Assembly (NCBI GenBank): GCA_965200315.1
Contig: OZ241362.1
Location: forward strand, 4,320,001-4,384,000
Source: Candidatus Latescibacterota bacterium
Lineage (GTDB): Bacteria; Latescibacterota; UBA2968; UBA8231
Direction of reading: 5' to 3'
Length of the DNA stretch: 64,000 nucleotides
A model generated the notes under the pieces. The model was not told where the DNA came from. It made no database searches and saw only the letters and a list, made by a program, of their open reading frames with translations. Shown one piece after another: positions 931 to 62,118 of the stretch (positions are counted from its first letter, which is position 1; each line of letters begins with the position of its first letter). The position numbers and the translations under genes were made by a program.

Positions 931-2658
931 TTAACCGCGCGTTGGTTGCAGGTTCAACAATACTAAAAGCCACGTTCGGTGCCAGTAGGCTGTATTGATA
1001 TACGGATTGTCCGCCGATGGCCAGTTGCGCCAATAGGTTTGGTTGTGCGGCAAGCGGTGGTAAAATTGCAACAAGGGTACGGCTGGCAGCGCACGCAGCC
1101 AAATCGCCAGCGCCTCTCTGAACAGGCCCACCAAGCGCGGGTCGTCGGGTGCGGTTTGGCCCATTTGATCGACGAGTGCGTCATACTCGGGGTTTTTCCA
1201 GCGCCAGAAGGTCGGCGTCGCCGTGCCCGTGGGCTGGGCGAAGCGACTGTGGTAGAGGCGCAGCGTAAAATACGGATCGCGCACCGAGCCGCCGTTGCCA
1301 AAGATATAGGCTTTGGCCGCGCCGGTGGTCATCCGCGTGTAGTTGTCTGAGGTCATTCGCATGTGGGCCGCAAAGCCCGCCCGCTGCAACTGCTCGACCA
1401 AGATCGGTGCGATGTCTTGGAAGGTCTGGCTGATGTCGAGCAGCATTTTGGCCTGCACCCCGTCCCGCGTCCAGATGCCTTCGGCGTTCCGCTGCCACCC
1501 AGACTCCTGCATCAGGGCCGCGCTGCGGGCCGGATCGAACAGCCCCACTGGATGTTGTTCCAGCAAGTCTTGGGCTTGGGTCGTGTAGTGCCTGAGCCGC
1601 GGGAAGTCGGGGAACGGCAACAAGGTTGGTCGCCCCGCTCCCTGCCAGCCGACCTCCACTAGCTGCTCGCGGTTGATGGCGTGGTTTACGGCCCAGCGGA
1701 AGGCTGGCTCGTTGTAGGGAGGCTCTTGGGCGTTGAAGCCCAGCGAAATAGGCCACCAGTCGAGATAGCCATAGGGCGGCTCTTGGCCACTCCAAGTCGT
1801 CGCATTGGGGTTTTGCTCTAGAACAGTGCGGATGTTGGGCGGCAGCATGTCGGCGCACAGGTCCATGGCATTGGTCGCGAGGTTCTGGACCTGTTTGGCC
1901 TCTTCCATGTAGGGCAGGTAGATCAGCCGTTCCACTTGCGGCGGCTGGCGGAAGCCGATTTTGGCGGCCCACCAGCCTGTGCGCCGATCCCAGATCCGCT
2001 GCTCTGGGGCCGAGTGCGCTAGGCGGTACGGGCCGCTTACTACGGGCCAGCCCCGCACCAAATCGAAATTGGCAAAGGTCTTTGGGTCGTGGCCCTCCCA
2101 GATGTGCCGGGGCACAATCGGCACGCCATTGTCGAAGTTGTGGGTGAAATACGTGAAGACGAAGCGCGGATTGGGGGCCGTCAATGCAATGTGAGCCGTT
2201 AGGCTGTCGCTGGCTACGGCCGTTTTAACCCAAGTCTGCATATCGACCGCAAAGGTGAGTTCCGGCGCATGGTCGCGGAGCATGTTGATCGTAAAGACCA
2301 CGTCGTGCGCTGTCCACGGCTGCCCGTCGCTCCACTCGACTCCGGGCCGAATTTTTATGGTGACTTCGGTGTAGTCTTCGTTGTACTCGTGCCCCGTGGC
2401 GATCCAAGGGATGATTTCGTCGCGATAGGCGTTGTAAAAGTAGAGCGGCTCGTAGAGGAAGTTGTACCCCGTGCGCGAGACCTTGCCGGGCAGGTAGGGA
2501 TTAAAGGCGTCGTAGTCTTGGAACTGGCCGCTGCACGTGCCTTGATCGACGCAGTCGGTGATCAAGGTGCGCTCGCGCGGCACGTGTTGCAGGCTAGCTT
2601 CGCCGCTACAAGCAGCGCAGACCAAAGCGAGGATTAGCGAGAAAGCGGGGCGCGTCAA
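931..2658 (-). CDS. ABC transporter substrate-binding lipoprotein (SBP family 5)
   Basis: Lipobox CAAC; IRPGVEWSDGQPWTAHDVVFT family-5 signature; FRWAVNHAINR. Confidence 0.9.
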   Translation of the reverse strand: MTRPAFSLILALVCAACSGEASLQHVPRERTLITDCVDQGTCSGQFQDYDAFNPYLPGKVSRTGYNFLYEPLYFYNAYRDEIIPWIATGHEYNEDYTEVTIKIRPGVEWSDGQPWTAHDVVFTINMLRDHAPELTFAVDMQTWVKTAVASDSLTAHIALTAPNPRFVFTYFTHNFDNGVPIVPRHIWEGHDPKTFANFDLVRGWPVVSGPYRLAHSAPEQRIWDRRTGWWAAKIGFRQPPQVERLIYLPYMEEAKQVQNLATNAMDLCADMLPPNIRTVLEQNPNATTWSGQEPPYGYLDWWPISLGFNAQEPPYNEPAFRWAVNHAINREQLVEVGWQGAGRPTLLPFPDFPRLRHYTTQAQDLLEQHPVGLFDPARSAALMQESGWQRNAEGIWTRDGVQAKMLLDISQTFQDIAPILVEQLQRAGFAAHMRMTSDNYTRMTTGAAKAYIFGNGGSVRDPYFTLRLYHSRFAQPTGTATPTFWRWKNPEYDALVDQMGQTAPDDPRLVGLFREALAIWLRALPAVPLLQFYHRLPHNQTYWRNWPSADNPYINTAYWHRTWLLVLLNLQPTRG

Positions 2659-2794
2659 GAGCTTCTCCTTTCGGCGGTGGTCGCCAAAACGTATTAACGC
2701 ACGTTGGGAGGGTCAACCGTCTTGAGCAAAGCCACTAGCCCGCCTATACTACCCTCATTCAATGCCAAACTCCATCAACTACCGAGGAAAAACC

Positions 2795-4414
2795 ATGTAC
2801 GATTTGTTAATCCGCAACGCCCAACTCCTCGACGGCAGCGGCCAGCCGGCTTTCCGCAGCGACATCGCCGTTGAGCAGGGCCGCATCGCGGCTATCGGCA
2901 ACCTTGCTGTCGCCGAAGCGAGTCGCACTATCGACGCCGAGGGCCGCATCACCTGCCCCGGCTTTATCGACATCCACACGCATTCGGACTTGACCATTGC
3001 CCTCGACGGCCGTGCGCTCAGTTCCCTAACGCAGGGCATCACGACCCAAGTCATGGGCAACTGTGGCGTCTCGGCCGCGCCCACCCGCGACTACGAGCCG
3101 TACTACGGTCCGCTCGACCCGGCCATGACCCGTGGTTTGGAGTGCGATTGGACTCATTTTGGCGACTATTTCCAGCGGCTCGAAGCCAATGGATTGGGCA
3201 CGAATACTGCGACCTTAGTAGGCCACGGCAACGTGCGCGTCGCCGCTATGGGTTACGACGACCGCCTGCCGACTGGGGCTGAAATGGAGCAGATGAAGGC
3301 GCTCGTCGCCCGCGCGATGGAAGACGGCGCGATGGGGCTGTCGTCGGGCTTGGCGTACGCGCCCGGCCCGTATGCGGCGCTGGAAGAACTGGTCGAGCTG
3401 GGGAAGGTCGTCGCTGAATACGGCGGCATCTACACCTCGCACATCCGCAACCAGACCGAGTCGATTGCCCAAGCTGTCGGCGAGGTCATGGCCGTCGGCG
3501 AGCAAGCCTCGGTGGCCGCCCACGTCTCGCACATGCAGCCCGGTGCGCCGATGATTGGCGCGACCCGCGACCTGCTTGCGGCCATCGACGAGAAGCGCCG
3601 CGAGGGCTGCGACATTAGCTGCGACGCCATTCCCTATACAGTTGGCAGCACCACCCTCAAATCATTGTTGCCCCCTTGGGCCTTGGCCGGCGGCGACGAG
3701 GCCCTGCTGAGGAGGCTGCAAGACCCAGAGACCCGCGCCAAGATCGAACAGGACACCGCGCAATACGGGGCCGAGAGCGGCGGCAGCCGCAAGCGCAACT
3801 TGGCGCGGGATGGGCAATGGGACAAAATTTGGCTGGGCAGTGCCGAGCAAAACGCCTCCCTAGTCGGTTTGAGCTTCGCCGAGATTGGCCGGCGGCGCAG
3901 TCAAACTCCTCACGACGCGGTTTGCGACATCCTCGTCGAAGAGTGTGCGCGGCCGTGGATGCTGGCCGAGGACGTGTCTGAAGAGGATTTCCTCAACATC
4001 GCCCGGCACTCCACTGGCGGCGTGATCTCCGATGGCTTCTCGCTGGTGCCCGAAGGCACCTTGGCCGAGGGCAAGCACCACCCCCGCTCCTATGGGGCGT
4101 TCCCCTACTTCTTGCGCCGCTTCGTCCGCGAGCAAGGCGCACTGCGCTGGGAAGAGGCCATCCACAAGCTCACTGGTCACCCCGCAGGCCGCTTCCGCTT
4201 GCGCGCACGTGGCCTGTTGCGCGAAGGCTATTGGGCCGACCTCGTGGTCTTTGACCCTGAAGCCATCGGCGAGTGCGCTGACTTTGCCGATCCCTACCGC
4301 TATCCGCAGGGCATCGACTGCGTAATTGTCAATGGACGGGTCACCGTTGAAGGAGGAGAAATAGCCGATAGCCGCGCCGGACAGATCGTCCGGGCCGCGC
4401 CGACTGCGCCCTGA
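2795..4414 (+). CDS. N-acyl-D-amino-acid deacylase (D-aminoacylase, amidohydrolase)
   Basis: PGFIDIHTHSD, MGNCG, HIRN, HPRSYGAFP, GYWADLVVFD motifs. Start placed at ATG 2795 after GAGGAAA. Confidence 0.9.
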   Translation: MYDLLIRNAQLLDGSGQPAFRSDIAVEQGRIAAIGNLAVAEASRTIDAEGRITCPGFIDIHTHSDLTIALDGRALSSLTQGITTQVMGNCGVSAAPTRDYEPYYGPLDPAMTRGLECDWTHFGDYFQRLEANGLGTNTATLVGHGNVRVAAMGYDDRLPTGAEMEQMKALVARAMEDGAMGLSSGLAYAPGPYAALEELVELGKVVAEYGGIYTSHIRNQTESIAQAVGEVMAVGEQASVAAHVSHMQPGAPMIGATRDLLAAIDEKRREGCDISCDAIPYTVGSTTLKSLLPPWALAGGDEALLRRLQDPETRAKIEQDTAQYGAESGGSRKRNLARDGQWDKIWLGSAEQNASLVGLSFAEIGRRRSQTPHDAVCDILVEECARPWMLAEDVSEEDFLNIARHSTGGVISDGFSLVPEGTLAEGKHHPRSYGAFPYFLRRFVREQGALRWEEAIHKLTGHPAGRFRLRARGLLREGYWADLVVFDPEAIGECADFADPYRYPQGIDCVIVNGRVTVEGGEIADSRAGQIVRAAPTAP

Positions 4415-4430
4415 AGCTCAGAGTCGGTAC

Positions 4431-4464
4431 AAGCCCCGTCTCCCTCGTTGGAGCGGGGCTTTTT
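4431..4464 (+). terminator. Rho-independent terminator
   Basis: AAGCCCCGtCTCC-loop-GGAGCGGGGCTT followed by a T-run, just after the deacylase stop. Confidence 0.75.
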
Positions 4465-4493
4465 AGGTACGCGACAAACGACGAGAACAAAAT

Positions 4494-6116
4494 ATGCCTA
4501 ACCAGAGGAAGGCGGTCAAAGTTGCTGTAGCTTCGAGCACACTTGATTTGCACAGCGTTCGCAATCCAACGGAGGTTACTCTGTTTACAGAATTTCGGGC
4601 GGGTGGACGGCTTAGAACTGGTGAGTGTGCTGTCCTACAAATGTGCTATGTGACTGCCTTGCACGGGAATATTTGGAAATTTGTAGGGGTTCAATATTCC
4701 GGTGAATATCCCCACACTTATTTATGGGAGACGGAAAAGGCGATTGGAATACTACTCAGTACCTGTGCAAGAGTTAATCAGGTAAAACAAACATGGCAAA
4801 TCGCCCATGAATGTGTTCATATTCTATCACCAGTGACACGTGGAAATGCAACAGTTCTCGAAGAAGGGATGGCAACTTTATTTCAAATGAAGTATGCAGA
4901 GGATGGTTCTATATGGGTGTCAATTGACGACAACGAGGCGCACTACCTTAAGGTCATAATGGACGAAGTGTTCGGGCGGAAAAACTTCATAACTAATGTG
5001 GTTTGGCGAAAGAATTACGCGCCAAAGTCAAGCGCAAGGCATTTCTCCGAAGACCACGACCATATTCTGGTTTACGCTCGTAATGGGGATGCCTGGATCC
5101 CCAACCCCATGCCGCGTACCGATAAACAAAACAGGGCGTACAGAAATCAGGACAACGACCCGCGAGGGCCTTGGCGGCCCAATAACCTTGCTGCGCGCAA
5201 TTACTATAGCAGAGGGACTTATAGTATTCGCTGCCCCGGCGGACGTTTAATTGAAGGACCACCTGCTGGTTCATATTGGCGAATTTCGGAAGAAAAATTT
5301 GGGGAAATGGATCGCGACGGGCGTATATGGTGGGGTAAGGATGGCAATAACGTCCCTGCCCCCAAGATTTATCTGAGCGAGGTCAAGCAGGGCATAGTTC
5401 CACAGACATTATGGAACTACGAAGATGTTGGTCACACGCAGGACGCAAAAAAGGAAACTGTGAAGCTATTTGGTAGTGAAGTTTTCGGAACACCAAAACC
5501 CGAACGTCTCATTCAACGCATCCTCCACATCGCCACCAACCCCGGCGACCTCGTCCTCGACTCCTTCCTCGGCTCCGGCACCACCGCCGCCGTCGCTCAC
5601 AAGATGGGCCGCCGCTACATCGGCATTGAAATGGGCGAACACGCCGTCACCCATTGCGTCCCGCGCCTGCACAAAGTGATTGACGGCGAACAAGGCGGCA
5701 TCTCCAAAAGCGTCGGCTGGCAAGGCGGCGGTGGCTTCCGCTTCTATCGCCTCGGCCCACCCATATTCGATGAGGAAGGACATATCCGCTCGGACATTAG
5801 CTTTTCCGTGCTCGCCGCCCACGTCTATTTTAGCGAAACCGGACGTCCGTGGCGTGGCCACACCGCTTCTCCCTTCCTCGGCCTGCACGACGGCCGCGCT
5901 TATGCCCTGCTGTACAACGGCATCCTCGGCGACAAAGGCAACGTCTTGACCCGTGCAACGCTCGCTGTGATTCGGGAAGAAATTGCTCACCAGGATGCCC
6001 ATTTCTCCGGGCCGCTCACGATCTACGGTGAACAATCCCGCTTGACGCCAGCGACGCTCGACCAGCAAGGCATCGTCTTCAAACAGACGCCCTACGATAT
6101 CAAAGCACGCACCTGA
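4494..6116 (+). pseudogene. mod: Type III R-M Mod subunit, N-terminally truncated and fused in frame to an HExxH zincin-like fragment
   Basis: From ~4896: AEDGSIWVSIDDNE, TPKPERLIQRI, LDSFLGSGTT (motif I), IGIEMGEHA. No DPPY/NPPY motif IV anywhere. The upstream part contains AHECVH..LEEGMAT. Confidence 0.75.
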
Positions 6117-6132
6117 CGAAGGAGCCAGCCAA

Positions 6133-6270
6133 ATGACAACGGAACGAACCCCATTGGGTCGAGAAATCGGGACGGCGCTGAGAGAAGTGCTCGCCCACGT
6201 GCATGGTGAGATCGATCTTCCCTGCCGAAGCGTCATAGAGGAGACTAGCGAACCTGATCCATGCAGCTAA
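6133..6270 (+). pseudogene. Truncated HigA-like (XRE-HTH) antitoxin N-terminal fragment
   Basis: Hand translation MTTERTPLGREIGTALREVLAHVHGEIDLPCRSV..; RBS GAAGGAG. Resembles the N-terminus of HigA-type antitoxins but stops before any HTH. Confidence 0.5.
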
Positions 6271-7492
6271 AACAATACCAAGCCGATACCCTCTCCGTCC
6301 TGCGCCGCTTCTTCGAGGAAGCGCGTATCGCCGGACCCAAGAACGCCTACGAAACCATACCGTCGAGGCACTCAAAGAAGGATGGGACTGCTCCTTCGCC
6401 TACATTTTCTGCTCAGTATCGCGCATCCAAAGCGCGACAGACGTCGAGCAATTACTCGGCCGCGTACTGCGGATGCCCTACGCCAAGCGGCGTCAAACTG
6501 CTGATCTCAACAGAGCCTACGCTTTCCTGTCTGAGCCGTCTTTTGGCGCGGCGGCACGTGCCTTGGCCGACAAATTGGTGGATATGGGCTTTGAGGAAGA
6601 CGAAGCCCTCGACAACATCGAGCCGGTGGAGCGCACGCTCGATTTTCAAAAAGATTTATTCGGTCCACAGGAAAAGCCGGAACCATTATTCAAATATGCG
6701 ACTCCGGCGACCCCAGAAATCCTGTCTGAACTTAGAGGGTCAGCGCACGATGGAATGCTGGTGCGCGAAACCGCTGAAGGACAGGTCGAAATCGCACTTA
6801 CCGGCTGGATTAATCAGGACCGCGAGCAGGCGATTGCGGAGGCATTGCCCGAGCAAGAGCGAAAAAGTTTTGCTACGGCCGTTACCCAATACCGCGCCGC
6901 AGTCAAGGAGCAAATATCCCCTGCCGAACAGGAGCAGCCATTCAAAAACAAGATCGCGGCCATTCGCCAGCAGGAACGGAGTGGCGTCTATCAACAGTAC
7001 CTCTTGGCACCTCAAGCCAACACAAAGGTTTCGTTCGACACGGCCTTTACATTTGTGGACACCATGTACTGGGATCAACGGCGCTATCGCGGACACTGGA
7101 AACCAAGCAAGCACTTTTTAGGCCAGGATCGCGTTCCCGCCTTTGACGGCGCAGACGACGGCGAGGAAATGCAATGCGCTCAGGTCATCGACAGTCTGAC
7201 GGCGATGAAGTACTGGATTCGCAATGTAGCGCGCCATCCCAATTCGTTTTGGCTGCCAACCGCAACAGACAAATTTTATCCAGACTTCGTCGCTTTGCTA
7301 AACGACGATCGTCTCCTCGTCGTCGAATACAAAGGCGCACATATCGCCGAAGGGACCGACACCAACGAGAAGCGGACCATTGGCGCTCTTTGGGAAAAGT
7401 CGAGCGACGGCAAGGGCCTGTTCCTCATCGCGGAGCAAAAGGTCGATGGCAAAGACGTGCGGCAGCAATTAGTAGAAAAGATCGGAACTTGA
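6261..7492 (+). pseudogene. res: Type III R-M Res subunit with the DEAD-box ATPase core deleted and a frameshift at ~6358
   Basis: MQLKQYQ N-terminus (33 aa), then in another frame from 6359 TVEALKEGWDC..EQLLGRVLR (helicase motifs V/VI) and C-terminal FYPDF..VEYKG PD-(D/E)xK. No Walker A/B. Confidence 0.85.
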
Positions 7493-7616
7493 AAGATCAC
7501 CTCGGCGGACGATTGAAGTTAATCTACACCGCATCGTTACTTTTGCGGGACGTACAACTTTACTACGCTCACCTCGGCAACGCCTTTGTCGCTGCACCTC
7601 ACTTTCGGATGAGCAT

Positions 7617-8891
7617 ATGAGCTATGCTCAGCTAACGCGCTTCATGTTGCCCTTGGTGGTGACAGCGCTGGTGCAAGAGCTCAGTGGCCAGTTCCTCAAC
7701 GGCGGCATGGCGCGGATGCCGCGGGCGGTCGAAACGCTGGCCGCCTTTGGCTTGGCCTTTGGCTTGGCGCTGTTTCTCGCCGGCACCCTGTCTCAGGTGC
7801 GGCAGCTCGGCTTGGTTCTCGTCGAGCACACCCAAGGCTACCGAGTCTGCTGCCGCTTTGTGCTCGTCGCTGGGCTGCTATTGGCCGGCATCTTAGCCAG
7901 CTTGGCACTGACGCCGCTGGGGACTTGGATCATCAACGATCTGCACGGGGTTGATCCTGCGCTCGGCGACGCGGTGCGCCTCGCTCTGCTGTGGCTCGTT
8001 CCCTTTCCCGTGCTGCACGGGATGACGCGCTTTTACAGCGGCGAGCTCATCCGCGTCCGCCGCACGGACATCCCCGCCTACGCCACCACCACCGGGATCG
8101 GGCTCAGCATCCTCGCGGTCTTTGTGCTGTTACCGCTCGGCTTCGTCCGCCAGACTCCCATCTTACTGCCGGTCCTCGCCACGTACACGGGTGTCCTTGC
8201 CGAGCTTGGCGTGGTCGCGTGGGGCCGTAGGTGCTTAGTGTGCTGGCCAGAGCCGGGCAATGCGCCAACCCTAACCTATTTCTACGTCCTGCGCTTCTTT
8301 TGGCCCTTGGCGCTGATCATGGCCGTGCAGGCCGGTACTCGACCGCTGATCAACGTGTTCGTCGCCCGCAGCACCGACGGCACCGAAGCACTAGCCGTGC
8401 TGACCATCGTCTATGCGCTCGGCCACATTCCCTATGGATGGCTCAACGAACTGCGCAACCTGCCGACGGCCTTCCGCCAAGAAGAAGATTTGGCCAAGAT
8501 CCGCCGCTTCTGCTGGGGCTGTTGTCTGTTTTCCTGTGCGTGGATGGTGGCACTGTTTTGGACGCCGGCTGTCGATTACATCCTCGGCACTTGGATCGGC
8601 ATCGGTCCCGAATTGATCGCTTACTGCAAGGTGCCGCTGCTCCTGTTTACGGGCTTTCCCTTTGTCGTCAGCCTACGCAGTTACTGGCACGGCATTGGCT
8701 TACTCCAGCACCGCACCCAAGCTATGGCACCGAGTGCCCCGTCGCGCGTAGCGACCGTCTTACTGATGCTAGCCCTGCTGGCCAATTTCGAGATCCACGG
8801 CGCGACCCAAGCCGTGGGCGCCTTAATCAGCGGCCACACCGTGGAGACCTTGGTCGTCTGGTGGGGCATCGGGCGCGGGCGGCGAGGCTGA
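7617..8891 (+). CDS. ANKH-like (progressive ankylosis family, MOP superfamily) membrane exporter
   Basis: Multi-TM. Motifs colinear with vertebrate ANKH as recalled: [68 protein letters not shown]. Confidence 0.8.
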   Translation: [424 protein letters not shown]

Positions 8892-9044
8892 AGTGCAGGC
8901 CGGGGGAAGCCCAATATCGCACTTGGTCTTGGGATGGCTATCCATTATAATTCAATACACCTACCCCGGGCCACTCCACTGCTGCCGCCAAGCATAAAGT
9001 GAAGATCGGCCAACAGTTGCAGGATTATCTAAAGCAGGCCTGAT

Positions 9045-9539
9045 ATGATGCGCGATGAAGTTTGGAACCAGCTAGTGGACGCAGAACGCCTAGTCCGGTA
9101 TTATGGCGATCTGGCTCAGCATTATAATAGATGTAGTTGGATTCTTCGAGGGATTATTCTTCTGTTCTGCATGGCAGGCATAACTGCACTACTAGAAAGG
9201 ATCCCTGAGTGGGCTAATCTCATAGTATATGCCGTCTTAGCTGGGGCTATTGTTGCGGAAGCCATTATGAATTACGAGAAAAAGGCAGCACTGGTTGGGA
9301 TCATCTATATCCGATGCGATAAACTGCTGGATCAGTGGCGCGATTTGTGGAATGAGATTGATCGCGAAGAGCCTGTGGATGAGGATAGCATACAAGAGAA
9401 ATATCGTCGTCTGAGGAACGAGCTAACGGATGTGACGGGATGGGTTGCCCTATGTGGTATTTCAGAACATAAACGCATTCATAAAAAGGCAACAAAAAAG
9501 GCCTACGAAACTATTCAAGGGTACTATGCTCATGTCTAG
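9045..9539 (+). CDS. Two-TM hairpin plus helical-tail protein (SLATT-like)
   Basis: Two adjacent hydrophobic helices (ILRGIILLFCMAGITALL; LIVYAVLAGAIVAEAIM) followed by a charged helical tail; AT-rich relative to flanks. Confidence 0.55.
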   Translation: MMRDEVWNQLVDAERLVRYYGDLAQHYNRCSWILRGIILLFCMAGITALLERIPEWANLIVYAVLAGAIVAEAIMNYEKKAALVGIIYIRCDKLLDQWRDLWNEIDREEPVDEDSIQEKYRRLRNELTDVTGWVALCGISEHKRIHKKATKKAYETIQGYYAHV

Positions 9540-9660
9540 AGAAGGCCAAACTAGGAATAGCCAGCCACCTCGACCGTCGAATCCGCCGCCGCCGAAGCCA
9601 CCACCGCGCAAGCCACCCCCGAGGAATTCGCCGGCTCGAAAACCTAGGCACTCGAGGTAA
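9532..9660 (+). CDS. Small Pro/Arg/Lys-rich peptide (42 aa)
   Basis: ATG overlaps the end of the upstream gene; MSREGQTRNSQPPRPSNPPPPKPPPRKPPPRN..; the stop is immediately followed by a terminator. Confidence 0.4.
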   Translation: MSREGQTRNSQPPRPSNPPPPKPPPRKPPPRNSPARKPRHSR

Positions 9661-9663
9661 AAC

Positions 9664-9701
9664 AAAAAGTGCCCTGCCTGCAAAGGGTTAGGGCACTTTT
9701 T
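9664..9701. terminator. Bidirectional Rho-independent terminator
   Basis: AAAAAGTGCCCT...AGGGCACTTTTT perfect 12-bp inverted repeat with A/T tails. Confidence 0.8.
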
Positions 9702-9750
9702 ACTGCTCAAAAGAGCCTTTAATTTGTTTGAAACGGAAAAAGGAGATTCC

Positions 9751-11385
9751 ATGAACGGCAACCAAGCCATTGCCCACATCCTCAAGGCCGAAGGCGTCGA
9801 GTGGCTGTCGGCTTTTCCCAACCAGCCGCTGATTGACGAGGCGGCGCGCGCAGGTATCCGCCCCATTATCTGTCGCCAAGAGCGGACGGGCGTCAACATG
9901 GCCGACGGCTTCAGCCGCACGGCTAATGGCCGCCCCTTTGGCGTCTTCACTATGCAGACCGGGCCGGGCGCTGAAAACGCGCTCGGCGGCGCAGCCCAGG
10001 CCTACGCCGATGCCATCCCCTTGCTGCTTTTGCCCGGCGGCGTGTCCACGGCCCGTACGCAAGTGCCGCCCAACTTCGACGCGGTGGACAACTATCGCGG
10101 CATCACCAAATGGGCCGCCAACATCAACCAAGTCGAGCGCATCCCCGAGCTGATGCGCCGCGCCTTTAGCCAGCTCGCCCACGGTCGCCCCGGGCCGGTG
10201 CTGGTGGAAATTCCCAGTGATTTAGGTACTGCCGAGTTCTCAGGCGACCTAGACTACCAACCGGTCAAAGCCTACAAGTCGGGGGCTGACCCAGACGCGG
10301 TGAGCGACTTGGTCGCCGCGCTGGTCAAGGCTGAATGTCCGGTCATTAACGCTGGACACGGCGTGTTATGGGCCGAAGCCACCGACCAACTCGTGGCCCT
10401 CGCCGAGCTGCTCAATGTGCCCGTTATGACCACCTTAGCCGGCAAGAGCGCGTTTCCAGAAAACCATGCGCTCGCGCTGGGCACCGGCGGCCACACTGGC
10501 ACGCTGATGGTTGATCGCTTCTTGCAAAAGACCGACTTCGTCTTGGGCGTAGGCACCAGCTTTACCATCTCAGTATTCAATGCGCCCATGCCCGCCCGCG
10601 CCGTCTTGGCGCAAGTGACCAACTGCGCCGAGGATCTCAACAAGGACTACCGGATCGACTTCGGGGCCGTTGGCGATGCGCGGATTGTGTTGGAGCAGAT
10701 CATCGAGGAAGCCCGTCGGCAGCTCGGGGCTGACGGGCGAGGAGACGGCGGAGTTGCGGCCGAGATCGCAGCCATCCGCGCCGAGTTCAACGCCACATGG
10801 GCGCCGCGATTCCGCTCGGACGAGGTGCCGATAAACCCCTACCGGGCCTTTGCCGAACTCGCCCGCGCCGTGGATGTGCCCAACACCATCGTTACTCACG
10901 ACTCGGGCTATCCCCGCGATCAGCTCGTGCCGTTCTGGCGGCCCCAAAAACCCAGAGGGTACATGGGCTGGGGCAAATCGACCCAGCTCGGCTACGGCTT
11001 GGGTTTGGCCTTGGGGGCCAAGTTAGCCGCGCCGGACAAGCAGGTCATCAACATCATGGGCGACGCGGCTTTTGGCATGGCGGGCCTCGACATTGAGACC
11101 GCAGTGCGCGCAGAGATTCCCATTCTCACAGTGGTGCTCAACAACGGCGTGATGACGCACTACGACCACTACATGCCCTACGCCACCGAGCACTATCAGA
11201 GCCACCAACTCGGCGGCCACTACGCGCAGGTGGCCGAGGCGCTTGGTGCCCACGCCGAGCGCGTTGAAGCGATCGCGGACTTGGCACCGGCCATCCAACG
11301 CGCCCTTGCGGCCAATGGCGAGGGCCGAGCCGCTCTGTTGGAGGTGATGACCAAGGCGGAAGAAAACGTGCCCAAATTTTGGTAA
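9751..11385 (+). CDS. Thiamine pyrophosphate-requiring enzyme (acetolactate synthase-like family)
   Basis: RQERTGVNMADGFSR, GPGAEN, GRPGPVLVEIP, GDAAFGM..VVLNN TPP motif; RBS AAGGAG before ATG 9751. Confidence 0.9.
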   Translation: MNGNQAIAHILKAEGVEWLSAFPNQPLIDEAARAGIRPIICRQERTGVNMADGFSRTANGRPFGVFTMQTGPGAENALGGAAQAYADAIPLLLLPGGVSTARTQVPPNFDAVDNYRGITKWAANINQVERIPELMRRAFSQLAHGRPGPVLVEIPSDLGTAEFSGDLDYQPVKAYKSGADPDAVSDLVAALVKAECPVINAGHGVLWAEATDQLVALAELLNVPVMTTLAGKSAFPENHALALGTGGHTGTLMVDRFLQKTDFVLGVGTSFTISVFNAPMPARAVLAQVTNCAEDLNKDYRIDFGAVGDARIVLEQIIEEARRQLGADGRGDGGVAAEIAAIRAEFNATWAPRFRSDEVPINPYRAFAELARAVDVPNTIVTHDSGYPRDQLVPFWRPQKPRGYMGWGKSTQLGYGLGLALGAKLAAPDKQVINIMGDAAFGMAGLDIETAVRAEIPILTVVLNNGVMTHYDHYMPYATEHYQSHQLGGHYAQVAEALGAHAERVEAIADLAPAIQRALAANGEGRAALLEVMTKAEENVPKFW

Positions 11386-11392
11386 GGATATT

Positions 11393-14335
11393 ATGATTTT
11401 TTTTGCTGGCATTCTCTTCTTTCTTTCCGGTGCTGCCGCTCTGGCGTACGAGGTGGTGTGGGTGAAACTTCTCACCCTCCAGTTCGGCAGCGCGGCGTGG
11501 TCAATTTCGACGGTGGTGGCCAGTTTCATGGCGGGTCTGGGAGCGGGGGGTGCTTGGGCCGGCCGTCGCGCCGACCGCATCCGCAGGCCCCTGAGAGCCT
11601 ATGCCCTCCTAGAGCTGGGCATCGCTTTCTTTGGCCTAGTCTCGGTGCCCCTCCTACGGAACATGGCCGGCGTCCTCGATCCCCTGTACCACCTCACCGA
11701 CGGGTACTTCGCCCTCTTCGTGCTACTGCAGTTTCTCCTCTCCGTCGCCATGCTGGCGGTGCCGACCTTCCTCATGGGTGCCTCCCTACCTCTGCTCATC
11801 GTGGCGGTTACAGAGGAAGCGGCCTTCCGCCGGAGCGTGGCCCTCTTCTACGGAATCAACACCCTTGGGGCGGCGGCCGGCACCCTCGTAGCAGGGCTCG
11901 TCCTGCTGCCCGTTCTCGGGATCTCCGACACGGTGTGGGTCGCCGTGGCCGCAGGCGTCTTGGTTGCTGCCGGGGGTTACCTCCTCGATCTCCGCATGGC
12001 CCCCCGGGACGCGACCGAGGAGCATCCAGCACCGACCGGCGGCACCCAGACCCCCCGGCTGCTGCTGGCTGCGGTGGCCATGGCCGGATGCTTGGGGCTC
12101 TTCTATCAGATCGCTTGGACGCGCCTACTCATCCCGGTGGTGGGATCCTCGGTCTACGCCTTCACCATCATCCTCACGACGGTCCTCCTCGGCATCGGCA
12201 TCGGCTCCCTGCTGGCCGCCGTCCCCTCCTTCCGGGAGAGCTCCTGCTGGCGGGCAGTGGCCGTCACGCTGGGGCTGGGCTCGTGCTCGGTCCTCGCAGG
12301 GCTGTTCGCCGTGAACGAGCTGCCGGCGATGTTCACGGCCATGGCCGAGGGCACGGGCGACCGCACTTGGCTTCTCTTCCTCTCCCAGGGCACTCTGGCG
12401 GCTTCCATCGTCCTCGTTCCCGCCTGCGCCATGGGGGCCGCCCTGCCCTTGGGCATCGCCGCGTGGCGGAACGAGGTGGGATCGAGAGGTTGGGCGGTTG
12501 GAGGCATGTACGCCGCCAACACCATAGGAGCCATTGTCGGCTCTGTATTGGCGGGCTTTGCGTTACTACCGTGGCTTGGAGCGACGGGGTTAATCCGCCT
12601 CGGTGCCACCCTCGGCATGGTGGTCACTGTCGTCCTTTTTCTATTGGACCGCACCAGCCCGCAACGACAGCGGCTCGGCTGGGCGGGCCTCTTCGCCGCA
12701 ATGCTTGCAGCATTCGCCTTCACGCTGCCCCAGACCGATATAAAAAACCTTCAGCGGGGCGTTTTCCGCAGGCTCCAAGCCAGCGAGGAGCGCTCGCCGA
12801 TAGGAAGTTTCCTGCTCTACGCACGGGAGGGGACCAACGCCACAGTTACCGTGTTTCGCACGCCCAACTCTACCGTGCTCAAGGTCAACGGCAAGGCGGA
12901 TGCCTCGACCGGTGGGGATATGGACTCGCAGTATCTGCTCGGACACCTGCCGATGTTCCTCCATCCAAGGCCGAAGGAGATTTGCATCATTGGCTACGGC
13001 AGTGGTGCCACGGTGTACGCAACAGCAACGCACCCGAATGTGACGGCCGTCGACGTGGTCGAAATTGAACAGGCGGTACTCGATGTTTCCGAGTACTTCA
13101 ACTCGGTCAACCACGGCATTCTTAAGGATTCGCGCGTGAGACTGCACACGGAAGATGGGCGCAATTTCCTCCGCCACCAGAAGAAGACGTACGACGTCAT
13201 CCTCTCCCAACCTTCCAACCCCTGGATAGCGGGTATCAGTTCCCTATTTACGACAGAGTACTACCGGGCCGCGTCGGCGCGGCTCAAGCCGGGTGGTCTT
13301 TTTTGCCAGTGGATGCAGGCCTATGAGACCTCTGCGGAGACGGTGCGCGTTGTGCTCCACACCCTAACATCGGAGTTTCCCTACGTGGCGGTGTTCAAAG
13401 TCTCCGATGACCTCATCTGCGTTGCCTCCCACTCCCCCATTGCAGGCTCTGCACGGCGTTACTCGGAGTACTTCTCGTTGCCGGGGGTGCGCAACTCACT
13501 CCGGCGAATCCAGATCGAGACCCCGTTCGACCTTTTCGCAAGTGCCTTCTTGCGATTTCCAGAAAACGCAGACGCGTTCAGGTCGCCGATCAGGAACACG
13601 GACGACAACCTCTGGCTGGAGTATCGAGCACCCATCGAGATGTACCAAGGGATGGAAGAGAACGTCGCGTCTATATTAAGCACCGATTACCTGCGCATGC
13701 TCCAACATCTTTTTCCCGAGCTAGCTCTCCGGGACATCGTCCTTGGGGTCGCCCAAAGCATCGCAACTAAACACTCTAATTTGTGGTATGTCATCCCCGC
13801 CTGGCAGGAGATGTTTGCAGAGGATGAGCCGTTGGCCTTGCGACTTGCGGAACTGGCCGCGCTGGCCGATTCGAGAAAGCGTGCGCTCGACGGCAACGAA
13901 GCACGGGAGAAAGCGGCGTTGCGCCTGATTCAAGAGCAGCGGTATGCCGAGGCGATTCCCATATTTGAGTCCGTACTTGCCGCCGAGCCTGAAAGCGTTT
14001 CCGCCCATCGCATGCTCGCTTGGGCCTTGTCGCATACCGGCGACAACAAAAGGGCGTGGCGGCACTACCTAAAGGCCATCCAGTACAATCCCGACGATTT
14101 TGAGTCGTACACTAATATGGCGGCCATTGCTCTTTCAAACGGCCTTTCCGAGGGAACCAAACTGTTGGACCGCGCACTTGCAGCCAATCCACATCACTTT
14201 ACCGCTTGGCGCGTCTATGTTGAGTACCTCGTGGATCAAAAGCAATACGATCAGGCTCGAGAACTCCTCAAAAAGACCGGGGAATCAATGGAAGGGGAAA
14301 AACTGAAAGCTCTCAAAAGCATGATCCCCGGATGA
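11393..14335 (+). CDS. Fused MFS-like membrane domain / spermidine synthase-like SAM domain with C-terminal TPRs
   Basis: SGAAALAYEVVW, PTFLMGASLP, YAANTIGAIVG membrane repeats; IIGYGSG, VVEIE, EDGRNFL, SQPSNPW; TPR-like helices at the C-terminus. Confidence 0.85.
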   Translation: MIFFAGILFFLSGAAALAYEVVWVKLLTLQFGSAAWSISTVVASFMAGLGAGGAWAGRRADRIRRPLRAYALLELGIAFFGLVSVPLLRNMAGVLDPLYHLTDGYFALFVLLQFLLSVAMLAVPTFLMGASLPLLIVAVTEEAAFRRSVALFYGINTLGAAAGTLVAGLVLLPVLGISDTVWVAVAAGVLVAAGGYLLDLRMAPRDATEEHPAPTGGTQTPRLLLAAVAMAGCLGLFYQIAWTRLLIPVVGSSVYAFTIILTTVLLGIGIGSLLAAVPSFRESSCWRAVAVTLGLGSCSVLAGLFAVNELPAMFTAMAEGTGDRTWLLFLSQGTLAASIVLVPACAMGAALPLGIAAWRNEVGSRGWAVGGMYAANTIGAIVGSVLAGFALLPWLGATGLIRLGATLGMVVTVVLFLLDRTSPQRQRLGWAGLFAAMLAAFAFTLPQTDIKNLQRGVFRRLQASEERSPIGSFLLYAREGTNATVTVFRTPNSTVLKVNGKADASTGGDMDSQYLLGHLPMFLHPRPKEICIIGYGSGATVYATATHPNVTAVDVVEIEQAVLDVSEYFNSVNHGILKDSRVRLHTEDGRNFLRHQKKTYDVILSQPSNPWIAGISSLFTTEYYRAASARLKPGGLFCQWMQAYETSAETVRVVLHTLTSEFPYVAVFKVSDDLICVASHSPIAGSARRYSEYFSLPGVRNSLRRIQIETPFDLFASAFLRFPENADAFRSPIRNTDDNLWLEYRAPIEMYQGMEENVASILSTDYLRMLQHLFPELALRDIVLGVAQSIATKHSNLWYVIPAWQEMFAEDEPLALRLAELAALADSRKRALDGNEAREKAALRLIQEQRYAEAIPIFESVLAAEPESVSAHRMLAWALSHTGDNKRAWRHYLKAIQYNPDDFESYTNMAAIALSNGLSEGTKLLDRALAANPHHFTAWRVYVEYLVDQKQYDQARELLKKTGESMEGEKLKALKSMIPG

Positions 14336-14384
14336 TGCTTTCTTGCGAGGTTATCCCGACAAACCCTTACATCAGGAGCAACGC

Positions 14385-15467
14385 ATGAGCCAATACAAAG
14401 CCGTCCTCATCGGCTGCAGCCGCATGGGGGCTTTCATCGACAACGAAGTTCCGGCCGATATGCGCCCGTACTCCCACGCCGCTGGGTACGAGGCTTGTGA
14501 GCGCACGGACCTCGTCGCCTGTTCGGACTTACGCCCCGAGGTGATGGAACGGGTCGGCGCGCGCTACGGCATCCCCGTGGACAAGCAGTACACTGACTAT
14601 CGCGAAATGCTCGCCCGCGAAAAGCCGGATATCGTCAGCGTCGCCACTCAGCCCGAGCACCGCGCCGAGATCGTCATTGCGGCAGTCGAAGCGGGTGCCC
14701 GCGCCATCTACGCGGAAAAAGCGTTCTCGGCCTCGCTGGAGGAAGCCGACCGCATGGTCGAAGCCTGCCAGCACCACAACATCGCGCTCAACATGGGCAC
14801 CAATCGCCGCTTCTATCCCGGCTACGACCAGATGAAAGCCGTCATCGACTCCGGGGAAATCGGCGCGTTGCAAACCCTCATCATTCACCAGACCAGTGCG
14901 CTGTTCAACGGCGCCAGCCACAGCTTTGACCTGCTCCAGCGCCTCAACTCCGACGCCCCGGCCGCTTGGGTACAGGCGCATTTGCCCAATGGCGACGAGA
15001 TCATCGACGGCCATATCCTGCGCGAGGACCCGACTGGGCACGGCATGATCCAGTTCGCCAATGGGGTTACTGCGTACGCGCTCAATTCGGGTCGGGGATT
15101 GGAAGTGGAGGCCGTCTGCGAAAAAGGCGTGGTGACGGCATTGGGCAATGATAGGGAGTGGCAGTTGCGGGCACCGGTAGCACGCGATCACCGGGGCCGC
15201 AATAAACTGGGCTTGGTGGAATTCCCTGCTTTCGAGCACCGGGCTTCAACGCTCTGCTTGGTCGAGGATTTGGTCCGCGCACTTGATACGGGCGAGCCTC
15301 CGCGCGGCGGTGCCGAGCTGGCGCGGGCTAATACCGAGCTGATTTTCGCGTTTGTCGAGTCGCACCAGCGCGGCGGTGCCCGCGTAGAGTTGCCGCTTGA
15401 CGGGAGCAAGTATCGACTAGAGCGGGATCGCGGGCCGAGGCAGCCCAAGTACGAGCCGGATGCTTAG
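14385..15467 (+). CDS. Gfo/Idh/MocA family oxidoreductase
   Basis: IGCSRMG, DIVSVAT, IYAEKA; RBS AGGAG before ATG 14385. Confidence 0.85.
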   Translation: MSQYKAVLIGCSRMGAFIDNEVPADMRPYSHAAGYEACERTDLVACSDLRPEVMERVGARYGIPVDKQYTDYREMLAREKPDIVSVATQPEHRAEIVIAAVEAGARAIYAEKAFSASLEEADRMVEACQHHNIALNMGTNRRFYPGYDQMKAVIDSGEIGALQTLIIHQTSALFNGASHSFDLLQRLNSDAPAAWVQAHLPNGDEIIDGHILREDPTGHGMIQFANGVTAYALNSGRGLEVEAVCEKGVVTALGNDREWQLRAPVARDHRGRNKLGLVEFPAFEHRASTLCLVEDLVRALDTGEPPRGGAELARANTELIFAFVESHQRGGARVELPLDGSKYRLERDRGPRQPKYEPDA

Positions 15468-55348: not shown

Positions 55349-57442
55349 ATGGATTACGAAAAACTCAAATCACATCAGACGGTTTTGCTAGACGTTTATA
55401 CATCCTTGAGTGAAACCCTTGAAGAAAAGGGAGATGAGATCTATTCGGAACTAAAGGCGATGAATGAGAATATAGAGGCGGAAAAATTTTTGCTCGCCGT
55501 CGTTGGAGAAGTAAAAGCAGGAAAATCGACCTTTATTAACGCGCTGCTCGGAGAAGAAATGTTGCCTTTTGATACTTTGCAAGCCACCTCTGAGATAGTT
55601 GAGATTTGTCACTCCGAAAAAAAAGAAGTTCAAGTAACCTTCGCTAATGGCACAACGCAAATAGTTGAGGATGATCCAGAAACGCCCCAAAATGAAGTAG
55701 TGCCATTTCTTAAAGAGATTGCTTCTGTCAACGAGGAATATCGCGACATCCCAATCGTTCAGGTCAATAGATTCTTGATTGATCATTATAGAGAGGCGGA
55801 GAGAAAAGCTGTATTTGAGGAGGTAAAATTAGAGGATTTCATTTCTGATCCTAGGCTTGAAAATACACACAATCTGGGAAAAGAGGAATTTGGAAACAAA
55901 ATTCATGAGTATATCGAGAAAAATATCTCATGTGATGAGATTCCCGAAAGAATCACTCTCGGTTATCCACATACTTTTTCTGAGTTCAAGCACTTTAGGA
56001 TTGTAGATACTCCGGGGATCAATGCGATTGGCGGAATAGAGGACCAAACGAAGGAGTTTATAAACCAAGCTGATGCGGTTATCTATCTGCATAAAGCAGG
56101 TCAGCTAGAAAGTAAAGCACTCCGTGATGCATTAGAAAATGAACTTTCTGAAAGAGTTAAAGATCGTATGATACTCGTCTTGACTCATGGAAGTCAGAGT
56201 GATGAAAATGAACGTAAGAGAATATTAGAGGCGACTGATAGTTATTATTCTAAGATCGGTTCAGATAATATCTTTTTTGTCGATAGTCTGACTGAGTTGT
56301 ATCTGCAAATTTTTTTCTATAACAAATCGATAGACGAAATCAAGGCTATTCGCAGGGAATATCCAGAGATAAGACGTTTAACTGCTGATTGTTTTGAGAT
56401 GGCGGAAGGAGACCAAAACGAGTTTTTCAGATTGTTAGAAAAGCAGGCGAACTTCAATCCGATTCGAGAAAGAATTAAAAAGGATGCACAAAATTCTGCT
56501 TCTATTCAAATGAAGGACTTTGCCGATGCCATACAAGAGCAATATGAAGCTCTTAACAATGAAATGGATGCATACATAGAATTTTTAAAAAGAGAAAATC
56601 AATCCCCTCAGTCTTTTGCATCGGAGATAAAAAAACAGAAATGTGAAATGGAAAGAATGAGAATTGATTACAATGAATTTACATCCAAACTTAGGGAAGA
56701 ATTCTCTCCCCGCGGTATGAATAGCAGGTACTATAAAAAAATAGATAAATTAGTGAAAAAATTTATTAATGAAATCAGTATGAAAGAATTTGACCCCAAC
56801 CAGCATAATGAAAAAACTATCCTGTCTTATTGCGAGAAATTGCGCCAAGATTTTAGTGATAAAATAACCAATTTTGTTGATTCACTAGAGGCAGACTTTA
56901 AAAAAACAATAGTGGATAGAAATGTTGAAGCGCAAAGTGATTACTCAATAACCGTGCCAATAATACCTCTGGGCAAGATATGGAATACCGCGTTCTTTTC
57001 AGCCCAGAATGAGAAAAATAAGCAATTAGACGAAGTAGAGAAGAGTAAAAAATCTTGGTCTGATTATTGGGAGATGCCTTTTGGGACGTCAATTTTAGTT
57101 ATAATAATAGATATAATAAAAAAAGAAAAAATAAAAGACAACATAATAAAAGACTTTCCGCAAAATCTTTGGGATAAAGTGAAGGGAGAACTCAAATCAA
57201 ATATCATAAAGGGTAAAACACGATTACAAGAAGAAATTGATGCGATGGTAGAGAGGTTCTGTGACGAATATAAGTATGGATTCGGTGGAGAACTTAAAAG
57301 GCGAAAACAGGATATGGAGGATATTGAAAAGAAGGAAAAAACAAATGAAGAGTTACATGGGGATATTTTAACTATGGAAGCTGAAAAAAAAAGCATCGAA
57401 GCCAATATCGATAAATGTGTAAGCGTCAAAAGGGAGCTGTGA
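55349..57442 (+). CDS. Bacterial dynamin-like GTPase
   Basis: G1 GEVKAGKS, G2 QAT, G3 DTPG; long helical stalk with a hydrophobic paddle FGTSILVIIIDII. Confidence 0.9.
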   Translation: MDYEKLKSHQTVLLDVYTSLSETLEEKGDEIYSELKAMNENIEAEKFLLAVVGEVKAGKSTFINALLGEEMLPFDTLQATSEIVEICHSEKKEVQVTFANGTTQIVEDDPETPQNEVVPFLKEIASVNEEYRDIPIVQVNRFLIDHYREAERKAVFEEVKLEDFISDPRLENTHNLGKEEFGNKIHEYIEKNISCDEIPERITLGYPHTFSEFKHFRIVDTPGINAIGGIEDQTKEFINQADAVIYLHKAGQLESKALRDALENELSERVKDRMILVLTHGSQSDENERKRILEATDSYYSKIGSDNIFFVDSLTELYLQIFFYNKSIDEIKAIRREYPEIRRLTADCFEMAEGDQNEFFRLLEKQANFNPIRERIKKDAQNSASIQMKDFADAIQEQYEALNNEMDAYIEFLKRENQSPQSFASEIKKQKCEMERMRIDYNEFTSKLREEFSPRGMNSRYYKKIDKLVKKFINEISMKEFDPNQHNEKTILSYCEKLRQDFSDKITNFVDSLEADFKKTIVDRNVEAQSDYSITVPIIPLGKIWNTAFFSAQNEKNKQLDEVEKSKKSWSDYWEMPFGTSILVIIIDIIKKEKIKDNIIKDFPQNLWDKVKGELKSNIIKGKTRLQEEIDAMVERFCDEYKYGFGGELKRRKQDMEDIEKKEKTNEELHGDILTMEAEKKSIEANIDKCVSVKREL

Positions 57443-58086
57443 TGGAACTTATCCACGCTGAGTGCATTTTCGCTGATATAGAATCTCTGATACAAGAAGT
57501 TAAAACGTATTTCAATGATCTTGACTTACAGAATATAGAAAGCGAAATATACGCATCGAGAATCGCTAACGAATTGGCTACCCGTCTCGAAAATATCAAC
57601 GGCGTCATACAGACAACACTGCTGATATATCTGGACAAAGATGCACGAAAAGAGATTTCAGGCTGGAAGCCGGTAGATCAAAATCGCTACTATGATGAGG
57701 GAATCCGGGAAAAGATTTCGTCACAAATACGTGAAACAGATTCCTTTTCTCCTCAAATTTTGCCCAAGAAATACATCAAAATTGCCTCTGGTGTTATTGC
57801 TGCCGGAGGACTTTATCGCGCCTTTTCATCTCCTGTTTCCTTCTATTCTGGGACTTTTATTTTTGGGATGTGTGTTGTGGTTGTGGCAGCAGGTATGTTT
57901 TTTTTCATTCCTCGTGTCGTGGATAAGAGCAATAAGAATAAGACTTTAGAAGAATTAGGTATTTATCTTGATGCAGTCGAGAAGAGATATAAAGAGCAGG
58001 CCCAAAAAATTATTGATGAGTATGTCTCCCTCTTCAACGAAATAACACTTGCAAAGGAAAAAGACGGTGGCAAATCTCAACAATAA
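57442..58086 (+). CDS. Helical protein with two TM/hydrophobic segments
   Basis: TGATG coupling to the dynamin; IASGVIAAGGLY and FIFGMCVVVVAAGMFFFI. Confidence 0.75.
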   Translation: MELIHAECIFADIESLIQEVKTYFNDLDLQNIESEIYASRIANELATRLENINGVIQTTLLIYLDKDARKEISGWKPVDQNRYYDEGIREKISSQIRETDSFSPQILPKKYIKIASGVIAAGGLYRAFSSPVSFYSGTFIFGMCVVVVAAGMFFFIPRVVDKSNKNKTLEELGIYLDAVEKRYKEQAQKIIDEYVSLFNEITLAKEKDGGKSQQ

Positions 58087-61704: not shown

Positions 61705-61719
61705 CAAAGAGAGCACACT

Positions 61720-62118
61720 ATGAATTTAGAGTGGAAATACGTCGAACCATTGGATGAGAGCCAATTGTCTAAAATTGAGGATCATTTTGGCCTTAGATTG
61801 CCGGAGGATTACAAAAAATTACTTGGGGAATGCAATCGGGGAAAACCTACGTTAGAAAGGTTTGATACAGACCATCTAAAGGAATGTGTCCTCGATTATA
61901 TGATCGACCTTGAAGAAACGGTTGGCACAGCCCAAACGCTATCTTCTGAAAATGGTGTCAGTAACCTGATCCCCGTAGCACGCGATCCATTTGGGAATCT
62001 GATCGCCTTTCAGATAGCAGAGCAGCAGGTGGATGGGGTGGTGTTTTGGGATCACGAGCGAGGTAAAATTTCTAATATATCAGATAGCTTTACTGAATTC
62101 TTGAAGAAGCTATACTAA
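61720..62118 (+). CDS. SMI1/KNR4 (SUKH) immunity protein
   Basis: IEDHFGLRLPEDYKKLL..N.G, LIPVARDPFGNLIAF, VVFWDHE, SFTEFLKKLY; directly after the nuclease. Confidence 0.92.
   Translation: MNLEWKYVEPLDESQLSKIEDHFGLRLPEDYKKLLGECNRGKPTLERFDTDHLKECVLDYMIDLEETVGTAQTLSSENGVSNLIPVARDPFGNLIAFQIAEQQVDGVVFWDHERGKISNISDSFTEFLKKLY

Follow-up and report, generated by a model that had tools for sequence, protein, structure and literature searches.

A full-length ANKH-family transporter gene in a sponge-associated Candidatus Latescibacterota bacterium

Mutations in human ANKH lead to chondrocalcinosis and craniometaphyseal dysplasia. ANKH mediates citrate and ATP release, a transport activity that was defined only in 2020 (PMC7371198), and a survey of 2022 gives it as SLC62A1, transporter classification (TC) number 2.A.66.9, with a MATE fold (PMC9333335). 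According to a paper of 2024 on ANKH evolution, no invertebrate Ankh could be identified in Ensembl (PMC11417794). The terms “bacteria” and “prokaryot” do not occur in the text of the 2020 functional paper (PMC7371198) or in that of a 2026 ANKH review, and a term search of the latter gave no mention of cryo-EM or AlphaFold. Full-text searches, which covered few subscription journals and no TCDB text and are no proof of absence, turned up no paper on prokaryotic ANKH-family proteins, and the string “PF07260” was not found in the literature searched. Many of the matches to “AnkH” concern an unrelated Legionella ankyrin effector, and the “Ankh family” of PMC13371769 is a protein language model. 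Bacterial proteins of this kind are recognised by databases and unstudied in the literature searched. Here we describe one of them, encoded by a gene of a Candidatus Latescibacterota bacterium that lies in a stretch of 64,000 nucleotides (contig OZ241362.1 of assembly GCA_965200315.1, positions 4,320,001 to 4,384,000 of the forward strand), which we call the window.

The gene is an uninterrupted open reading frame (ORF) with an ATG start that encodes 424 amino acids, and it lies exactly where a previous sequence-only reading of this DNA had put it (Table 1). Against Pfam-A, the sole match of the protein at E<=10 was PF07260 (ANKH), with 178 bits against a cutoff of 22 and an E-value of 4.1e-52; the match places residues 2-295 on profile positions 9-312 of 344. 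The MatE, MurJ and Polysacc_synt profiles of Pfam gave zero matches even at E<=10, generic MATE does not score better, and NCBIfam returned only two chance-level matches (E 0.13 and 0.28). A BLASTP alignment with the ANKHB of sturgeon (P0143) had 152 identities in 438 positions (35%, E 1e-71), with residues 3-414 of the query on residues 10-444 of the subject. This confirms what had been proposed beforehand: the window protein truly belongs to the ANKH family, and does so over its full length; what is new is a further bacterial member, of a kind already labelled in databases.

A phmmer search of the protein against 1.84 billion cluster representatives yielded 1191 proteins at E<=0.001, of which 578 reached E<=1e-10 and 64 reached E<=1e-30. 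The best-scoring eukaryotic match was a protein of the sponge Sycon (39% identity, E 1.1e-65); sturgeon ANKHB was matched at 36% identity (E 1.0e-58), and further animal matches came from a crinoid, an amphioxus, a hemichordate, a brachiopod, a hydrozoan (cnidarian), a sea star and a bryozoan. The choanoflagellates Monosiga, Hartaetosiga and Salpingoeca and one marine-protist transcript of MMETSP were also matched. Named animal and choanoflagellate ANKH proteins fall between E 1e-42 and 1e-65, and the animal matches that form a single stretch cover about residues 3-414 of the query, several rows being split into two or three stretches or having a shorter span. Counted over aligned columns, identity to the eukaryotic rows is 27-37%. 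Two of the proteins, P0156 (1136 amino acids, ANKH plus EGF/fibulin domains) and P0169 (848 amino acids, ANKH plus a FATC domain), are probably merged gene models of animal assemblies.

The likeness extends to individual residues. The sequence-only reading had set four segments of the protein (residues 227-251, 266-280, 105-113 and 394-406) beside vertebrate ANKH strings and called them colinear. All four are in place and colinear with fish ANKHB P0143, with 15/25, 11/15, 7/9 and 8/13 identical residues, respectively (counted by eye), and the vertebrate strings agree with P0143 at almost every position, also by eye, P0143 being a fish ANKHB and not the human protein. We aligned 36 bacterial rows with 13 eukaryotic ones and found 33 positions where conservation is 85% or higher in each group, among them Q25, R242, N246, R251, W275, R354, T367, S373, R377 and E410. 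The DSSP string of an AlphaFold2 model (see below) places Q25 in helix 1, R242 and N246 in helix 7, R251 in the turn after it, W275 in helix 8, R354 in helix 10, T367 and S373 in the loop between helices 10 and 11, R377 in helix 11 and E410 in helix 12. We also followed the sites of human disease alleles, named in PMC13356900, PMC5830990 and PMC7198517, with the numbering checked on P0143, which carries P5, M48, L244, S375, F377, G389 and E490 at the human allele numbers. Three of these sites are kept in the window protein (L244 as L231, F377 as F347 and G389 as G359) and two are changed, M48 to T40 and S375 to T345, Thr being common in other members at both; the column of P5 is a gap, and E490 falls in the missing C-terminal tail. 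The site of L244 is Leu in 35 of the 36 bacterial rows and in all 13 eukaryotic ones. The human loss-of-function mutation L244S abolishes the ANKH-dependent release of citrate, ATP-derived AMP and pyrophosphate (PMC7371198).

AlphaFold2, run on an alignment of 66 rows, gave an all-helical model with a mean pLDDT of 93.7 and a pTM of 0.87. Foldseek found 62 matches to this model in the PDB at E<=0.001, and those listed were all chains of the MOP superfamily (MATE, MurJ, Wzx): inward-facing PfMATE (6fhz, E 2.9e-8, TM-score 0.69), MurJ (7wax, TM-score 0.75; 6nc6, 0.72), plant and human MATE, NorM and WzxE. Sequence identity to these MATE, MurJ and Wzx structures is 11-17%. A search by sequence through all chains of our PDB copy gave one chance match, an antibody chain (E 0.15), and thus no solved structure of a close relative, animal ANKH included, is present in that copy. 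In many distant relatives, the N-terminal half of the query aligns by phmmer with the C-terminal half of the target (about residues 2-204 on about 232-437). Such an alignment is the 6+6 internal repeat typical of the MOP superfamily. The protein is thus predicted to have the two-lobed fold of MOP, MATE and MurJ transporters.

The window’s genome (5.36 Mb, a single contig) has one copy of PF07260, which was found in none of 14 control genomes. Proteins 91-94% identical to the window protein come mostly from metagenome-assembled genomes (MAGs) of Candidatus Latescibacterota, with two in Gemmatimonadota records. Leaving the window’s genome out of the counts unless stated, PF07260 is matched in 29 of 30 other species sampled in the window’s genus (the single miss is a genome 75% complete), in 56 of 75 genomes of its family, in 9 of 31 of a second family and in 0 of 61 of the twelve other families of the phylum; for the whole phylum, with the window’s genome included, the figure is 66 of 168. 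One of these genomes has, on two contigs, two PF07260 matches with identical scores (region L103; G103:C14:193734-194687 and G103:C23:10431-11384), each in a frame of 524 amino acids, which is either a duplicate or assembly redundancy, and several other genomes of the phylum have a second, weak PF07260-like paralogue of 437-487 amino acids. A scan for a single conserved peptide pattern, with one genome per species, recovered at least 81 relatives, a lower bound given that it rests on one motif. The 80 loci kept belong to Latescibacterota (26), Chloroflexota (39, mostly Caldilineae and Anaerolineae), Gemmatimonadota (7), Opitutales (1) and unassigned MAGs (7), and the family is present in at least four bacterial phyla, namely, Latescibacterota, Chloroflexota, Gemmatimonadota and Verrucomicrobiota. 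A word-indexed search gave at least 384 proteins at E<=0.001 among 8000 candidates; among the matches listed, 120 of 120 carry PF07260, one with a source name beginning “progressive an...”. When 98 representatives were scanned, 89 matched PF07260 at E<=0.001 and 8 matched nothing, and the nearest large clusters of the ESM Atlas are bacterial, two of the top three being automatically named ANKH domain-containing. This is thus a populous bacterial family, and one which databases already label. The “distant” bacterial relatives of the sequence-only reading do exist, but the wording was too weak, since there are hundreds of close ones.

Compared with 16 loci of the same genus, the median identity of the ANKH-like protein is 92.9% and the median ratio of nonsynonymous to synonymous substitution rates (dN/dS) is 0.125; for the neighbouring amidohydrolase, thiamine pyrophosphate (TPP)-dependent enzyme and oxidoreductase the same comparison gave 93.3-93.9% identity and dN/dS values of 0.105-0.131. 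The low dN/dS and a divergence in step with the neighbours indicate that the gene is under purifying selection and has been inherited together with them. It is a vertically inherited, near-universal gene of one Candidatus Latescibacterota genus. Sequencing runs that contain the full stretch come from two studies and are labelled as sponge metagenome or with a coded organism name. Two RNA-library runs contain 86-90% of its sampled words; their contigs span the entire 9.1 kb, with the decayed restriction-modification (R-M) remnant described below and intergenic DNA included, so that DNA carry-over is possible and we do not take them as a sign of transcription.

The gene has a conserved setting in its lineage (Table 1). 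In 13 of 19 same-genus loci the ORF of the amidohydrolase ends exactly where the ANKH-like ORF starts, which makes the former a probable operon partner. The TPP enzyme lies 31-214 bp downstream of the ANKH-like gene in all 19 (and adjoins it in 10 of 61 distant loci), and the GFO/MocA oxidoreductase clusters with them, after the TPP enzyme, in 18 loci of the genus and in the window, i.e., in 19 of the 20 places compared. The same order is found in the more distant L028 (Latescibacterota) and L029 (Gemmatimonadaceae), at 72 and 74% identity. Amidohydrolase, ANKH-like gene, TPP enzyme and GFO/MocA oxidoreductase are thus a conserved gene run in this lineage. In the window, the TPP enzyme and the oxidoreductase have between them a protein of 980 amino acids (11393-14335, + strand) whose N-terminal part is long and hydrophobic and is joined to a spermidine/spermine synthase domain and, at the C-terminus, TPR repeats; to judge from spacing, only about five same-genus loci would have it in this place.

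Table 1. Features of the window around the ANKH-like gene
Feature	Positions	Strand	Basis
Family-5 extracellular solute-binding protein, divergent, upstream of the amidohydrolase in the genus	931..2658	-	PF00496, 177 bits; synteny
Amidohydrolase_3 family gene	2762..4414	+	PF07969; NF006560, 197 bits, below cutoff of 340; spacing
Decayed type III R-M unit	4494..7492	+	PADLOC, GC content, synteny
ANKH-family (PF07260) transporter gene, intact, 12-helix MOP fold predicted	7617..8891	+	ORF, Pfam, BLASTP, AlphaFold2 model, dN/dS
ORF, 164 amino acids, without family match	9045..9539	+	Spacing
TPP-dependent enzyme, PRK06154 type, conserved downstream neighbour	9724..11385	+	NF004807, 728 bits, cutoff 607
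GFO/IDH/MocA-family oxidoreductase	14343..15467	+	PF01408; synteny

Relative to genomes of the same genus, the R-M unit is an insertion of 3 kb between the amidohydrolase and the ANKH-like gene. Its Mod gene (4494-6116) gives a PADLOC match to MTase_III (487 bits, residues 133-539 on profile positions 123-542) that lacks the first ca. 122 profile positions and has in their place an unrelated N-terminus of ca. 130 amino acids. The Res gene is in pieces in two frames (6261-7121 and 6473-7492), with a match to REase_III at the C-terminal end only (profile positions 737-893 of 898). GC content is 0.55-0.57 across the unit and 0.61-0.63 in the flanks. Downstream, the ORF without family match lies within a gap of 836 bp between the ANKH-like and TPP-enzyme genes. 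The additional DNA in this gap is missing from the loci of the genus. The N-terminal half of the ORF is hydrophobic, and Pfam, NCBIfam and PADLOC gave zero matches for it. Contigs of the second study have the identical arrangement, with no differences over 5537-11600, so it is no assembly artefact. There were no Rfam matches in the window, and no tRNA was found in it. Far from the gene run, at 55349-62118 (+ strand), there is an island of low GC content (0.36-0.44, compared with ca. 0.6 elsewhere) that codes for a dynamin-family GTPase (55349-57442), an unassigned ORF of 223 amino acids, a protein of 1036 amino acids with weak AAA matches (58049-61159), a protein with a WHH/colicin-type DNase domain (61156-61704) and then an immunity-type protein of the SUKH/SMI1-KNR4 kind (61720-62118). 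We read this as a probable acquired island of the conflict or defence kind, which would include a toxin-immunity pair.

Outside the lineage we had 61 distant loci, 36 of them with at least 3 kb on both sides. Within 3 kb of the ANKH-like gene in these 36, a TPP enzyme was found in 6, a Zn-dependent dehydrogenase (Zn-ADH) in 7 and a GFO oxidoreductase in 3, with any of the three in 12; in four loci of Chloroflexota the TPP enzyme is directly upstream on the same strand. The window’s genome has 5 TPP-enzyme genes in 5.36 Mb, which puts the chance adjacency of one below 1% per locus. One fixed operon across phyla is ruled out by the differing subfamilies of these TPP enzymes, and what recurs across the loci is a theme, the oxidation or decarboxylation of small molecules.

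As a whole, the best explanation, in which we have moderate confidence, is a bacterial ANKH-family secondary transporter with 12 helices and the MOP fold that would work by alternating access and move a small anion, most likely outward. By analogy with other proteins of this fold, access would alternate between the N and C lobes. The polar set in common with animal ANKH (R242, R251, R354, R377, N246, Q25 and E410, almost all of it in helices 7-12) suggests an anionic substrate, which may be a small anionic metabolite, either an organic acid (di- or tricarboxylate), a nucleotide or a phosphate compound. The outward direction would be that of citrate and ATP release by ANKH and of the MATE efflux pumps, and export could remove the acidic product of the neighbouring enzymes. 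Several points weigh against this reading. Substrate, direction and coupling ion of the bacterial members are assigned by analogy only, and the conserved arginines, placed by helix in a predicted model, may either face the central cavity or lie only at the edge of the membrane. The C-terminal tail of animal ANKH, an animal-subfamily feature outside the Pfam domain definition, is absent, the alignment stopping at residue 444 of 496 in ANKHB. In the window genome, the decayed R-M unit splits the gene from its usual upstream partner, and a scan of 4300-9800 gave no sigma-70-like promoter just upstream of it on the + strand; in that scan, with a consensus that may not fit the phylum, sites were at the shuffled level (5 promoter-like against a mean of 2.8, standard deviation 1.9; 6 terminator-like against 6.0). 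Among the well-flanked distant loci, 24 of 36 lack all three oxidative enzyme families in the 3 kb on either side, and the enrichment in TPP enzymes is not a clean statistic because the loci are related by descent. The adjoining TPP enzymes also differ in NCBIfam subfamily: that of the window is of the PRK06154 type (728 bits) and that of L058 of the PRK08266 type (740 bits), whereas that of L053 exceeds no cutoff. Moreover, the solute-binding proteins and catabolic enzymes in the run fit an importer equally well.

A carrier that takes up, or exchanges, the substrate on which the catabolic enzymes next to it act, in place of an exporter, is accordingly the alternative that we take most seriously, even if we consider it unlikely. 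It would suit the conserved run with amidohydrolase, TPP enzyme and oxidoreductase and the place of this run beside family-5 solute-binding proteins; the AlphaFold2 model is nearest to inward-facing and occluded states and is uninformative on direction. To our knowledge, however, the characterised members of the MOP superfamily and ANKH all move substrates outward. ANKH-dependent release has been shown (PMC7371198), and, given the solute-binding proteins, the cluster would already have an ABC importer of its own. The highest TM-scores, to MurJ (7wax and 6nc6), and the match to WzxE would fit a flippase for a lipid-linked diphosphate precursor, with the conserved arginines binding the diphosphate as those of MurJ do with the diphosphate of their substrate. 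We find this quite improbable, given an identity to MurJ and Wzx of only 12-17%, the lack of MurJ or Polysacc_synt matches in Pfam at E<=10, and neighbours that are small-molecule enzymes and not cell-envelope genes; moreover, what ANKH, as the nearest relative with a characterised function, releases are soluble anions. If the protein were an ordinary MATE pump for the efflux of drugs or cations, with a mere cross-match to the ANKH profile, the shared fold would be explained, five of the 98 representative relatives give marginal MatE matches, and the top ESM Atlas cluster was automatically named MATE family efflux transporter. All five matches (20.2-23.2 bits) are, however, under the cutoff of 24.9 bits, the window protein scores 178 bits to ANKH and fails to match MatE even at E<=10, its identity to animal ANKH is 35% from end to end and the ANKH-specific conserved residues are kept, so that such a pump is largely refuted and has very little probability left.

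The origin of the family was approached with a quick tree of 69 rows, followed by a careful one of 51 rows (LG+C20 with posterior mean site frequencies, ultrafast bootstrap and Shimodaira-Hasegawa-like approximate likelihood ratio test). For the latter we dropped four long branches (P0144, P0159, P0172 and P0218) and 14 other rows (P0150, P0164, P0006, P0018, P0024, P0077, P0121, P0178, P0185, P0199, P0208, P0209, P0221 and P0233). One clade (100/99), with the window protein outside, unites every one of the 14 rows that carry a eukaryotic label: those of 8 animals and 3 choanoflagellates, the MMETSP transcript P0186, and P0163 and P0170, labelled by their grouping with P0186 only. Scans of metagenome contigs and viral contigs for the source of P0172, P0163 and P0170 gave no relatives. 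The window protein groups with P0001, P0004, P0012 and P0019 (100/98) and then with the Latescibacterota MAG protein P0086 (93/96). The backbone between the eukaryotic clade, the bacterial lineages and the distant PF07260-like families has supports of 22-48. Forcing the window’s six-row subclade onto the eukaryotes changed the log-likelihood by -32 (approximately unbiased [AU] test, p 0.081, for a group chosen after the tree had been seen), so this grouping is disfavoured without being formally rejected. Bacteria account for at least one of the distant outgroup clades, since a protein from a Latescibacterota genome is 42-47% identical to its rows P0194, P0210 and P0191; the same range holds for P0224, which is in neither tree. 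The data agree with a bacterial family of great age from which the eukaryotes branched off once, the direction not being proven.

The suggestion of the sequence-only reading that this clade may be close to the origin of animal ANKH is not supported, as several supported nodes separate the window protein from the base of its bacterial subclade (100/98) and the eukaryotes stand apart (100/99). The window protein raises a fair question on the origin of the animal gene but is not specially close to that origin. The alternative suggestion, interkingdom transfer, is not supported for a recent event and is possible for an ancient one, in either direction. A recent acquisition from the sponge host, or of the animal gene from such symbionts, would agree with the sponge metagenome labels of the runs that hold this DNA and with the sponge protein of Sycon as top eukaryotic match (39% identity). 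We give it hardly any credence, however, because over aligned columns identity to any eukaryote is only 27-37%, the eukaryotes are one clade and the window protein lies well inside a bacterial one, members of the family occur in Latescibacterota, Chloroflexota, Gemmatimonadota and Verrucomicrobiota, and the divergence of the gene keeps pace with that of its neighbours. Tentatively, and as an idea that we still find rather doubtful, the ANKH family might be of bacterial origin, the single eukaryotic clade of choanoflagellates, animals and some marine protists stemming from one ancient acquisition of a bacterial anion exporter. If so, a regulator of animal mineralisation would be a domesticated bacterial metabolite exporter, the present bacterial members would still have the original function, the release of nucleotides or citrate-like anions, and, in a sponge symbiont, this release could feed the host or signal to it.

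Whatever its origin, the ANKH family has a long history and a wide distribution in several bacterial phyla that have been little studied, which raises the questions of its role in export there and of the source of the animal gene. The protein had also been put forward as a tractable model of the transporter, and this seems plausible, with no ANKH chain in our PDB copy and the key residues common to both. Over-expression, the solution of a structure and assays in liposomes are hard with the animal protein, and a compact bacterial protein of 424 amino acids is a practical candidate for them; its value as a model lies in the 35% identity from end to end, the cluster of arginines and the retention of the L244, F377 and G389 positions. 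The gene of this sponge-associated bacterium could thus provide a simple stand-in for the animal protein.

Among the described systems, the MATE transporters (PF01554; 6fhz, 5xjj and 9r1g) share with the window protein the two-lobed fold of 6+6 helices, with TM-scores of 0.5-0.69, but identity to them is 11-17% and the protein has no match to the MatE profile at E<=10. Its conserved residues are arginines, whereas the cation site of MATE is built of acidic residues. MurJ and Wzx (7wax, 6nc6 and 9g9n) give the best superpositions, with TM-scores of up to 0.75 to the inward-occluded MurJ; here, too, identity is low (12-17%), there is no Pfam or NCBIfam profile match, and there are no cell-envelope neighbours at the window locus. 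Animal ANKH differs in size (451-529 amino acids, compared with 424), in having a tail beyond helix 12 and the extreme N-terminus that contains P5, both missing from the window protein, and in its place in the tree, where the window protein branches outside the eukaryotic clade; the bacterial gene, for its part, sits in a run with catabolic enzymes. Nevertheless, the two belong to the same Pfam family, are colinear over ca. 410 residues, have a predicted 12-helix MOP fold and have Q25, R242, N246, R251, W275, R354, R377 and E410 in common.

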